DNA from: an uncultured delta proteobacterium
Lineage (GTDB): Bacteria; Myxococcota; UBA727; VGSZ01
Length of the DNA: 64,000 nt
Reading direction: 5' to 3'
Assembly (NCBI GenBank): GCA_963775425.1
Contig: CAVZJB010000004.1
Location: 160,001-224,000 of the forward strand
Position 1 is the stretch's first letter. Each line of letters begins with the position of its first letter. Under the pieces are notes generated by a model. It saw only the letters and a program-made list of their open reading frames with translations, did no database searches and was not told the origin of the DNA. Below are positions 1,786 through 4,860 of this stretch, piece by piece. Made by a program: the position numbers and the translations under genes.

Positions 1786-2493
<708 letters not shown>

Positions 2494-2495
2494 GG

Positions 2496-2840
2496 CTAGA
2501 CCTGCTCCGCCTTCACGTTTTTGCCGCGCGCCACGCGCTGCTTCTCGCCGTCCGAGGTGAACACCACGCCGGTGCGCACCGGGCGCTTGGCCTTCTCGGC
2601 CATGAGCATCACGTTGGAGAGCGGGATGGAACCTGCACCCTCGACGATGCCGCCCTCGGGGTGCTTGGGGTTGCGCTGGGGCTTGATGTGGCGCTTGATG
2701 ATGTTCACGCCGTCGATGCGCACGCGCCAGTGATCACCCGAGCGGATGACCTCGAGCACGCGGCCCGTCTGCCCCTTGTTCTCCTTGGAGCCGGAGATGA
2801 CCTTGACCAGGTCGCCCTTCTTGATGCGGGTCTTCATCAC
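2496..2840 (-). CDS. rplX: 50S ribosomal protein L24
   Basis: [15 protein letters not shown] motif, GVNIIKRH, position between rplN and rplE. Confidence 0.96.
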
Positions 2841-3205
2841 AGCACCTCCGGCGCGAGGGACACGATCTTCATGAACTTCTTGGCGCGCAGCTCGCGGGCG
2901 ACGGGCCCGAAGATGCGGGTGCCGACCGGCTCGTTGTCCTTGTTGATGAGGACGGCGCCGTTCTTGTCGAAGCGGATGTAGCTGCCGTCGGGCCGCGCAA
3001 TCTCCTTGGCGGTGCGGACGACGACGCAGCGAACCACGTCACCCTTCTTCACCTTGGAGTTCGGGCCGGCCTCTTTGACGGCGCACACGATGACGTCGCC
3101 GATGGAGGCGTAGCGGCGCTTGCTGCCACCGAGCACCTTGATGCACATGACACGACGGGCACCACTGTTGTCGGCGACATCGAGGACTGATTGGGTCTGA
3201 ATCAC
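2837..3205 (-). CDS. rplN: 50S ribosomal protein L14 (GTG start)
   Basis: [27 protein letters not shown]. Confidence 0.98.
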
Positions 3206-3219
3206 GGGGGAACATCTCC

Positions 3220-3294
3220 CCCTGGCCGCCCCGTCGTGAGGACGGGAACGCTTGCTCCGGACGCAAGGCCCTGAAGAATCAGGGCGGGCCAGGG
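3220..3294 (-). ncRNA. Putative cis-regulatory four-way-junction (cloverleaf) RNA between rpsQ and rplN
   Basis: Perfect stems: CCCUGGCC/GGCCAGGG (8 bp) closing GCCCUGA/UCAGGGC, CUUGC/GCAAG and CCCGUC/GACGGG. Confidence 0.55.
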
Positions 3295-3307
3295 TATCCG
3301 GATGAAA

Positions 3308-3568
3308 CTAGATGGAAGCCTTCTCGGCGACGGACTGCAGTCTCCACCTCTTGAGCTTGGACATCGGGCGGGTCTCGACGATGACGACGGTGTCGCCGAC
3401 GCCGGCCTCACCCTTCTCGTCGTGCGCGTAGTAGCGCGAGCGGTGCTTCAGGAACTTTGCGTACTTTGCATGACGAACCGTACGAAACACCTCGACGGTG
3501 ATCGTCTTGCCCATCTTGGTGCTCTTCACGATCCCACGCAGGGATCGTCCAAAACCGCGCTCGCTCAT
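3308..3568 (-). CDS. rpsQ: 30S ribosomal protein S17
   Basis: KMGKTITV, AHDE, GDTVVIVETRPMSKLKRW. Confidence 0.97.
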   Translation of the reverse strand: MSERGFGRSLRGIVKSTKMGKTITVEVFRTVRHAKYAKFLKHRSRYYAHDEKGEAGVGDTVVIVETRPMSKLKRWRLQSVAEKASI

Positions 3569-3783
3569 GCCGTCCTCGTCGCACCGGCATTTTGAGCCGT
3601 CAACTGGTTCTTGAGAGTCACCACGCGCGCGATGGCCCTCCGCGTGGTGCGGATCTCCATCGTGTTGGTGAGCTGCCGCGTGGAGTGCTTGAACTCGATG
3701 TCGAAGAGCTCCTTGCGCAGGCGCTCTTCTTCCTGCGCGAGCTCCGCGACGTTCTTCTCCTTGAGGTAGTCGTGCTTGCCCAT
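3565..3783 (-). CDS. rpmC: 50S ribosomal protein L29
   Basis: LRKELFDIEF...IRTTRRAIARVVT; position between rplP and rpsQ; ATG at 3783. Confidence 0.92.
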   Translation of the reverse strand: MGKHDYLKEKNVAELAQEEERLRKELFDIEFKHSTRQLTNTMEIRTTRRAIARVVTLKNQLTAQNAGATRTA

Positions 3784-3785
3784 GG

Positions 3786-4202
3786 TCAGATCTCCGCCGA
3801 CTTGTCGATGAACTTGCACGCGAGGGGCAGCTTGGACGCGGCGAGCGTCAGCGCCTCCTTGGCCGTCTTGTGGTCCACGCCCTCCATCTCGTAGAGGACG
3901 CGGCCGGGCAGCACCACCGCCACCCAACCTTCGACGTTGCCTTTGCCGTGGCCCTGGCGGGTCTCCGCCGGCTTCTTGGTGAAGGGCTTGTCGGGGAACA
4001 CGCGGATCCAGATCTTTCCGCCGCGCTTGACCTTGCGGGTCATCGCGATGCGGGCGGCCTCGATCTGGCGGGCGGTGAGCCAGCCGGGCTCGGTGGCGAT
4101 GAGGCCGTAGTCCCCGAAAGAGACCGTGCTCCCACGCGTGGCCTTGCCCTTGAGGTTGCCCTTCTGCTGCTTCCTGAACTTGACGCGACTGGGGGACATC
4201 AT
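3786..4202 (-). CDS. rplP: 50S ribosomal protein L16
   Basis: [28 protein letters not shown]. Confidence 0.98.
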
Positions 4203-4212
4203 GGCGGCGACC

Positions 4213-4860
4213 TCACGCGGACCGGCGAGCGCTGGTCGGCAGCACCTCGCCCTTGAAGATCCAGCACTTGCAACCGATCACGCCGTACGTGGTGTGCGCC
4301 TCGGCGAACCCGTACTCGATGTCGGCGCGCAGCGTATGCAGCGGCACGCGGCCCTCGCGGTACCACTCGTGGCGCGACATCTCGGCGCCGCCGAGGCGGC
4401 CGGAGACGGCGACGCGGATGCCCTTGGCGCCGAACTTGGTCGCGGTCTGAATGGCCTTCTTCATCGCGCGCCGGAACGCCACGCGGCGCTCGAGCTGCTG
4501 CGCGATGGACTCGGCGACGAGCTGCGCGTCGGTCTCGGCCTTGCGCACCTCGTGGATGTTCAAGAAGACCTCGCTCTGGGTGAGCTTCTGCAGGTCCTTC
4601 TTGAGCTGCTCCAGCGACGCGCCCTTCTTGCCGATGACGATGCCGGGCCGCGCGGTGTGCACGTTGATCTTGCACTTGTTGGCGGCGCGCTCGATGTCGA
4701 CGCGGGCGATGCCGGCGCTCTTGAGCTTCTCGTGGATGTACTCACGCAGGCGCATGTCCTCGTGGAGCCAGTCCGCGTAGCCCTTCTCGCGGAACCAGCG
4801 CGAGTCCCAGGAGCGAATGACGCCGAGGCGGAAGCCTGTCGGGTGTGTCTTCTGTCCCAT
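4213..4860 (-). CDS. rpsC: 30S ribosomal protein S3
   Basis: [35 protein letters not shown]. Confidence 0.98.

Follow-up and report, generated by a model that had tools for sequence, protein, structure and literature searches.

The window, as we call the whole stretch of 64,000 nucleotides that was analysed, carries on its minus strand the boundary between two ribosomal protein gene clusters (Table 1). On one side of this boundary lies rpsQ, the last gene of an S10-type cluster, and on the other side, rplN, the first gene of an spc-type cluster, which begins with a GTG codon at 3205-3203; the start residue is the same in the relatives, there encoded as ATG. The genes that follow rplN are rplX, rplE, rpsH, rplF and rplR, in this order. 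The spacer between rpsQ and rplN is 102 nt long (3206-3307) and occurs once in the 8.26-Mb assembly.

Two peculiarities of the spc-type cluster lie outside this spacer. The gene for S14 (rpsN) is missing between rplE and rpsH (1775-1790), where the stop codon of L5 extends to 1786 and S8 begins at 1775, and the sole Ribosomal_S14 match of the assembly is located on another contig (G000:C9:151659-151817). The L5 protein consists of 235 amino acids, with the Pfam L5 domains from residue 81 onward and a lysine-rich N-terminal extension that includes KPKGES repeats (window 2254-2493, minus strand).

Table 1. Genes, RNA structures and sequence segments at the rpsQ-rplN boundary (window coordinates; SD, Shine-Dalgarno).
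Feature	Positions	Strand	Basis or remark
rpsQ (ribosomal protein S17)	3308-3568	minus	ORF list; Pfam Ribosomal_S17, E 1.5e-26
rpsQ stop codon TAG	3310-3308	minus	closes the S10-type cluster
Conserved RNA element P1 / internal loop / P2, 54 nt	3252-3305	minus	covariance model R2
P1 5' strand UCCGGA	3297-3302	minus	alignment columns 4-9; starts 5 nt after the rpsQ stop
Internal loop, 5' side, UACCCU	3291-3296	minus	relatives: GACCCU 11/12, GACCUU 1/12
P2 5' strand GGCC(C)	3286-3290	minus	columns 16-20; f3 and f4 show compensatory changes
Variable distal P2, GCCCUGA/UCAG.. with loop UUCU	3272-3285	minus	first arm of the four-way junction in another register
P2 3' strand (G)GGCC	3267-3271	minus	columns 95-99
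Internal loop, 3' side, UUGCG	3262-3266	minus	consensus YYGNG; G3264 and G3262 invariant
P1 3' strand UCCGGA	3256-3261	minus	bases of the 7-nt middle-arm loop of the four-way junction
Four-way junction, 75 nt	3220-3294	minus	minimum-energy fold (RNAfold); this genome only
Junction, acceptor-like stem, 8 bp	CCCUGGCC (3294-3287) with GGCCAGGG (3227-3220)	minus	
Junction, first arm	GCCCUGA (3285-3279), loop UUCU, UCAGGGC (3274-3268)	minus	
Junction, middle arm	CUUGC (3267-3263), 7-nt loop GUCCGGA, GCAAG (3255-3251)	minus	followed by the 4-nt linker CGUU
Junction, third arm, hairpin CCCGUC(CUCAC)GACGGG	3230-3246	minus	CCCGUC 3246-3241, GACGGG 3235-3230
Switching segment GGCCAGGG	3220-3227	minus	pairs with CCCUGGCC or, via its last GGG, within the SD hairpin
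SD / start-codon hairpin GGGGGA(GAUGU)UCCCCC	3203-3224	minus	constrained fold
rplN (L14), GTG start	2837-3205	minus	Pfam Ribosomal_L14, E 2.4e-56
rpsH (S8)	1380-1775	minus	Pfam Ribosomal_S8, E 1.5e-47

An earlier note on this DNA had singled out a cloverleaf in the spacer, described as a perfectly paired four-way junction of tRNA length, with a 5-bp arm, a 7-nt loop and a 4-nt linker but no D-loop or T-loop consensus, next to a competing hairpin that shares a GGG with the 3' end of the cloverleaf and covers the SD sequence. All the helices and all these dimensions can be read off the minus strand, and so can the competing hairpin (GGGGGA at 3222-3217, loop GAUGU, UCCCCC at 3211-3206), which abuts the GTG of rplN. 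RNAfold, applied to the segment 3190-3310, predicts the junction as the fold of lowest energy (-53.8 kcal/mol; energy z-score -3.14), and 0 of 200 dinucleotide shuffles are as stable. As a predicted fold, the cloverleaf is confirmed in silico, with an energy better than chance. The note had further proposed a new riboregulator, and what stands of this proposal is that the rpsQ-rplN spacer harbors a structured, conserved candidate; the conserved unit, however, is not the tRNA-shaped junction.

The conserved unit consists of two stems, P1 and P2, that flank an internal loop. In the window, it takes a compact form, UCCGGA-UACCCU-GGCC...GGCC-UUGCG-UCCGGA (3302-3256), and the block common to the 12 relatives reads roughly YUUCGGA-GACCCU-GGCC...GGCC-YYGNG-UCCGAAR. 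Across the family, P1 comprises 6-8 bp, the asymmetric internal loop 11 nt, and P2 is topped by a variable hairpin cap, the distal part of the stem ranging from 4 to about 75 nt among the relatives. The unpaired bases A11, C12, C13, U15, G102 and G104 are invariant in the 13 sequences, and G10 and C14 are the same in 12 of the 13. Between the 3' end of P1 (3256) and the start codon (3205) there are at least 50 nt, and in the relatives, the element is 76-148 nt away from the start on its upstream side.

Covariation among the relatives, which the note had named among the checks to be made, is detected in the 13-sequence alignment, by RNAalifold and with a leave-one-out model. In the alignment (the sequence from the window and 12 relatives; P1, columns 2-9/105-112; P2, columns 16-20/95-99), 91.1% of the 168 cells are paired and 8 of the 13 pairs show changes on both sides; in the shuffle control, 0 of 500 reach any of the five measures, and when the 3' partners are slid by 1-3 columns, pairing falls to 25-53%. 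The same P1 and P2 are returned by RNAalifold with no structure supplied, 7 of the 11 pairs having changes on both sides. Six of the alignment cells are G-U, which become A-C mismatches on the opposite strand, and therefore, the folded strand is the mRNA-sense strand only. The covariance model R2, for which the 12 relatives were used and the sequence from the window was left out (63 positions), matches 3252-3305 on the minus strand with a score of 40.9 bits (E 9.2e-8) and all 63 positions covered; this is the only significant match in the 64-kb window, the next best one scoring 11.6 bits, and another model, R1, has a single match in the whole genome. The family evidence comes from 13 sequences, all from related genomes of one order. 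The element, its conservation, covariation, fixed position and strand are established, and there is very little doubt that the conserved RNA is real.

Relatives were sought at the DNA level in 61 genomes and then by tblastn (S17 and L14 as queries), and both genes were located in 28 genomes. The element is present in 12 of the 28, always between rpsQ and rplN, and these spacers measure 159-358 nt; the remaining 16 have spacers of 0-103 nt, with no match to the element. The carriers belong to the family of the genome analysed here (genera g3 and g4), to family f3 (two genomes) and to family f4 (one genome), that is, the members come from three families of one order, and 13 of 13 lie between rpsQ and rplN on the coding strand. 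In a whole-genome search of the order (equivalent to the class) with R1, 12 of the 38 genomes match, each at one site and always in the rpsQ-rplN spacer (by family: f1, 9/10; f3, 2/2; f6, 0/21; f2, 0/2; f5, 0/1). In the lone negative genome of f1 (G001, 85% complete), the contig with rplN breaks off 120 nt upstream of this gene, and no rpsQ turned up. The f4 genome (G013) was overlooked in this search, and its site reaches 43.9 bits in a direct search of the locus. Because the first-look filter of the whole-genome RNA-model search is lossy (G013 was overlooked even among five genomes), the whole-genome negatives, obtained on large GC-rich genomes, are soft, and the absences are mainly taken from spacers that were read directly. 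Among 151 genomes of the phylum, R1 matches only the same f1 and f3 genomes. The element is found in none of the 80 metagenome loci listed by an L14 search (67-82% identity), and in a loose sequence-pattern scan of genome contigs, the highest score with the model is 23 bits for the 80 loci listed; the true members score 44-68 bits, and the loose-pattern matches are GC-rich and chance-like.

The comparison with Rfam, likewise foreseen in the note, reveals no known family at the spacer: over 2000-4500, Rfam 15 (E<=10) gives five weak matches, none inside the spacer and none to tRNA or tRNA-like models, and no family matches the loci of the 12 relatives (E<=1; one unrelated weak match). Rfam 15 does not cover the S8 operator of E. 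coli either. A described leader in front of rplN was not found in a search of the main texts of papers, and the supplementary alignments of PMC3616713 and PMC7247131 may contain unlisted motifs; PMC7247131 mentions no L14, rplN, S17 or Myxococc, and PMC11109978 no rplN, rpsQ or Myxococc. The element meets the general description of a leader in its constant position, its coding-strand orientation and its conserved structure with covariation. Like the element, the ribosomal-protein leaders (L10, L20, S15, S6:S18, and the 20 candidates of Eckert and Weinberg 2020, PMC7247131) are lineage-restricted and located directly upstream of ribosomal-protein genes, and both have conserved loop bases, covarying stems and a possible imitation of rRNA. 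Most likely, the element represents an undescribed family and a narrowly distributed candidate ribosomal-protein leader.

Judging by sequence, there is about an even chance that the spacer element is an undescribed autoregulatory leader at the head of the spc cluster. Under this scheme, a protein of the cluster that is in excess over rRNA would bind the P1/loop/P2 element, and the bound element would lower the expression of rplN and of the genes behind it. A new leader in front of rplN would show the solution of another lineage to the same dosage problem; to our knowledge, the feedback control of the large S10/spc clusters is largely unknown outside Gammaproteobacteria. The E. coli leaders are narrowly distributed, according to PMC3616713. 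A practical gain is that the 54-nt RNA is small, well defined and directly testable with recombinant proteins.

The element could also act in cis and sense no ribosomal protein, either as a determinant of RNase III/E processing or stability or as a part of an attenuator or antiterminator. This would agree with its position exactly at the S10/spc junction, with the situation in E. coli, where the terminator of S10 and the promoter of spc lie in the rpsQ-rplN spacer, and with the relatives, in which long spacers contain a hairpin directly after rpsQ as well as further hairpins and U-rich runs after the element (e.g. L012 956-973). The eight invariant or near-invariant unpaired loop bases, however, are typical of a specific ligand site and not of a nuclease stem, neither terminator-like nor promoter-like sites were called around the spacer when the coding strand of the window was scanned, and the two f3 genomes do not share the terminator-like hairpin. 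A cis-acting role of this kind is rather unlikely.

If the element is an autoregulatory leader, S8 is the best candidate for the regulator because the invariant GANAC/GUC core copies the S8 site of rRNA. In this core, which adjoins P1, G-A-N-A-C on the 5' strand (G3298-A3297-U3296-A3295-C3294, with A3295 and C3294 invariant across the family) is opposite G-U-C on the 3' strand (G3262-U3261-C3260). The same letters in the same pairing context are found in helix 21 of the genome's own 16S rRNA (..AAGUCGGG.. with ..CUCGAUACUG..), and the E. coli rplE operator has the same core in the same 5'-to-3' order (GANAC at +6, GUC at +82). In PMC4176348, the S8 determinants of 16S rRNA are given as an invariant A642, the contacted A640 and U598, and a triple of G597-C643 with position 641 that tolerates isosteric changes. 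The positions thus singled out (U598-A640, N641, A642 and G597-C643) have their equivalents in A9-U105, G/U10, A11 and C12-G104 of the element; A9-U105, A11 and C12-G104 are invariant in 13/13, and the variation at position 10 is of the tolerated kind. The candidate trans-acting ligand S8 would be supplied by rpsH, four genes downstream in the same cluster.

The likeness to the S8 site is incomplete. The base triple 595-(596-644), which PMC4176348 gives as A-(A-U), or G-(C-G) in Thermus, is not reproduced because G102, the variable N103 and the invariant C13 cannot form the 596-644 Watson-Crick pair in register; at the position of the triple, the element has the invariant C, C and U (C14 in 12/13) opposite G and a variable base. 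In addition, the two-strand GANAC/GUC pattern with flanking helices occurs at 1604 sites in the 16.5 Mb of strand of this genome, or about 1 per 10.3 kb, and the chance to encounter it in a 100-nt spacer is roughly 1%, before allowing for the post-hoc search. The weight of the core is modest since it was noticed only after other rRNA similarities had been examined. When the genome's own rRNA is scanned for the two-strand pattern at any distance, many non-helical chance combinations appear. Further likenesses, to 5S rRNA and to helices of 16S rRNA besides helix 21, were judged to be due to chance. Because the triple is missing and the pattern is frequent by chance, S8 is put forward as the leading candidate and not as a conclusion; from the sequence, S8 as the ligand is possible rather than probable.

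The E. coli S8 operator belongs to the same gene cluster, with S8 encoded downstream, as is the case for the element. According to PMC4176348 and PMC3616713, it is a mimic of 16S helix 21 with the same GANAC/GUC core and strand order, and PMC3616713 adds two bulged adenosines, A8 and A9, and a variable distal stem. In contrast to the element, which sits before rplN, the operator overlaps the rplE start and ribosome-binding site; being at least 50 nt away from the rplN start, the element cannot block initiation directly in the manner of the E. coli operator. The operator has the triple A595-(A596-U644) / A+80-(A+81-U+11), whereas the element has CCU opposite YYGN, and there is no sequence homology between the two outside the eight core bases. 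If the S8 reading is true, the element would provide a second, independently evolved mRNA mimic of a protein site in rRNA for structural comparison.

Another ribosomal protein (L14, L24, L5 or S17, encoded upstream) could be the regulator instead, or another rRNA site could be mimicked. The S8 site does not account for the bases C13, C14, U15 and G102, and the element shares 10 consecutive bases, GAUACCCUGG (window 3298-3289), and then, after the P2 insert, GUCC with the genome's own 16S rRNA at ~789-805. The 790-loop region of 16S is universally conserved, and the match covers nearly all the invariant bases of the element. The match, however, exists in the primary sequence only and the base-pairing context differs, an estimated ~0.2 such 10-mers are expected by chance, and we know of no spc-encoded protein that binds the 16S region ~789-805. 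A regulator other than S8, or a mimic of another rRNA site, is regarded as unlikely.

The conserved fold and the cloverleaf are mutually exclusive. The strand CCCUGGCC, which is the 5' strand of the cloverleaf acceptor, makes up the conserved loop and the 5' strand of P2 in the conserved fold; the middle arm contributes its 7-nt loop as the 3' strand of P1 and the 5' half of its stem as the 3' side of the internal loop. Only 2 of the 4 cloverleaf arms have counterparts in relatives. The sequence 3' of P1 differs between genera and is not alignable, with the exception of the third-arm hairpin CCCGUC/GACGGG, which is shared with genus g3 (CCCGUCGU ... ACGACGGG) in the alignment with this genus. 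The complementarity that forms the acceptor-like stem is conspicuous in this genome (z -2.2, with 1% of the shuffled downstream sequences as good), the best duplex of the conserved 13-nt segment reaching -20.3 kcal/mol with GGCGGCCAGGGG, 13 nt before the start codon; such a complement stands out in 0 of the 12 relatives, where 18-91% of the shuffles do as well. Because the regions downstream of P1 differ and the acceptor-like complement is unique, the cloverleaf as a whole is confined to this genome. At best, it is a lineage-specific alternative state of the conserved element, and folding predictions suggest that it may be the ligand-free alternative fold in this genome.

Enforcing the motif fold in this genome costs 4.4 kcal/mol over the free ensemble; among the relatives, the cost is 0.1-1.1 kcal/mol in three g4 genomes, where the motif is already within the minimum-energy fold of the genus, and up to 7.8 kcal/mol elsewhere. 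In the motif-forced fold, GGCCAGGG is released and the SD hairpin grows from 3 to 8 pairs, extended by A3223-U3204 and C3224-G3203 and thus taking in U3204 and G3203. It is this release and this enlargement on which a switch model can be based. The free RNA would prefer the cloverleaf, in which CCCUGGCC would hold GGCCAGGG and leave only a 3-bp hairpin on the SD sequence. Binding of the protein to the motif fold would release GGCCAGGG, which would then complete an 8-pair hairpin (six consecutive pairs and two past a one-base bulge) over the SD sequence and would also cover two bases of the GTG start. The mean predicted accessibility of the SD sequence is equal in the free and the motif-forced ensembles (0.36 in both), and the 13 sequences show no consistent difference between the two. 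In genus g3, a long-range alternative pairs the 5' strand of P1 with the SD region, so that the formation of P1 would free the SD sequence, a logic opposite to that of the switch in the genome analysed here.

The two-state switch envisaged in the note is plausible for this genome only and is deduced solely from folding energies, and it is doubtful that the cloverleaf is a working second state. Binding of a protein, the identity of this protein and the switch between the folds are what we infer from the combined data. In its most complete version, the leader reading holds that the order has its own riboregulator for an spc protein, S8 or another, at the very head of the spc cluster, that it arose independently of the one in E. 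coli with the same GANAC/GUC mimic, and that in this genome it was compacted to 102 nt and has the cloverleaf as its ligand-free, translation-permissive state, to be dismantled when the protein captures the P1/loop/P2 fold; taken as a whole, this combination is rather improbable.

The tRNA-shaped junction could be functional in itself, as a tRNA or rRNA mimic, an RNase P-like processing site between the S10 and spc transcripts, or a mimic that attracts a tRNA-binding factor. Besides its energy (the minimum-energy fold at z -3.14) and an acceptor-like complementarity that beats 99% of the shuffles, it resembles a tRNA in its length of 75 nt, in the four perfect helices of the junction and in the 5-bp arm with a 7-nt loop and a 4-nt linker. 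It differs in the 8-bp closing stem (the tRNA acceptor has 7 bp), in the absence of the D-loop and T-loop consensus bases and in the lack of a CCA-type 3' end. The tRNA-like reading is not supported by the comparisons: ARAGORN finds 0 tRNA genes in 2500-4000, the Rfam tRNA and tRNA-like models find nothing, the 12 relatives have no comparable long-range helix to the CCCUGGCC segment, the stem CUUGC/GCAAG has no counterpart in their alignment, and the cloverleaf pairs away family-invariant bases that fit the other fold. A function of the junction as such is very unlikely. Even less credible is a DNA-level signal (operator or promoter) or slow divergence of a GC-rich spacer with incidental RNA folds, to which the origin of all members from one order and the ease with which GC-rich sequences form stable folds might point, given that the flanking spacer is not alignable between genera and the element is, that the stems carry compensatory substitutions with G-U pairs on the sense strand only, and that the length of the distal P2 varies freely.

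In public sequence data, no sequencing run contains half of the query words. A DNA contig (sequencing run X1) is identical over 3207-3379, and a contig from a soil metatranscriptome (X3), which comes from a relative, takes in the start of rplN and the greater part of the spacer (3129-3303; 23 differences, 10 gap letters). The RNA-library contigs of relatives cover the spacer thinly and carry no information on strand or ends.

The spacers of the relatives have several features of their own. In family f3, a terminator-like hairpin directly follows P1 in one genome (L012 956-973), and in the other, a terminator-like hairpin is found just after rpsQ (L013 1939-1952); both long spacers of this family have, by eye, TTGAC-type -35-like hexamers upstream of the element, and the scan called no promoters there. 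In genus g3 (L002-L004), ACGACGG, CCCGUCGU and ACGACGGG are mutually complementary and could form attenuator-like alternative hairpins downstream of the element; the 5' strand of P1 in these spacers is complementary to the SD region CCGAGGG. In genus g4 (L005, L006, L008), the helix that sequesters the SD sequence (..UCCGAAGC.. with ..UUCGGAAGGA..) is almost a second copy of P1 (CUUCGGA/UCCGAAG), and therefore, P1 and the SD helix could exchange strands.
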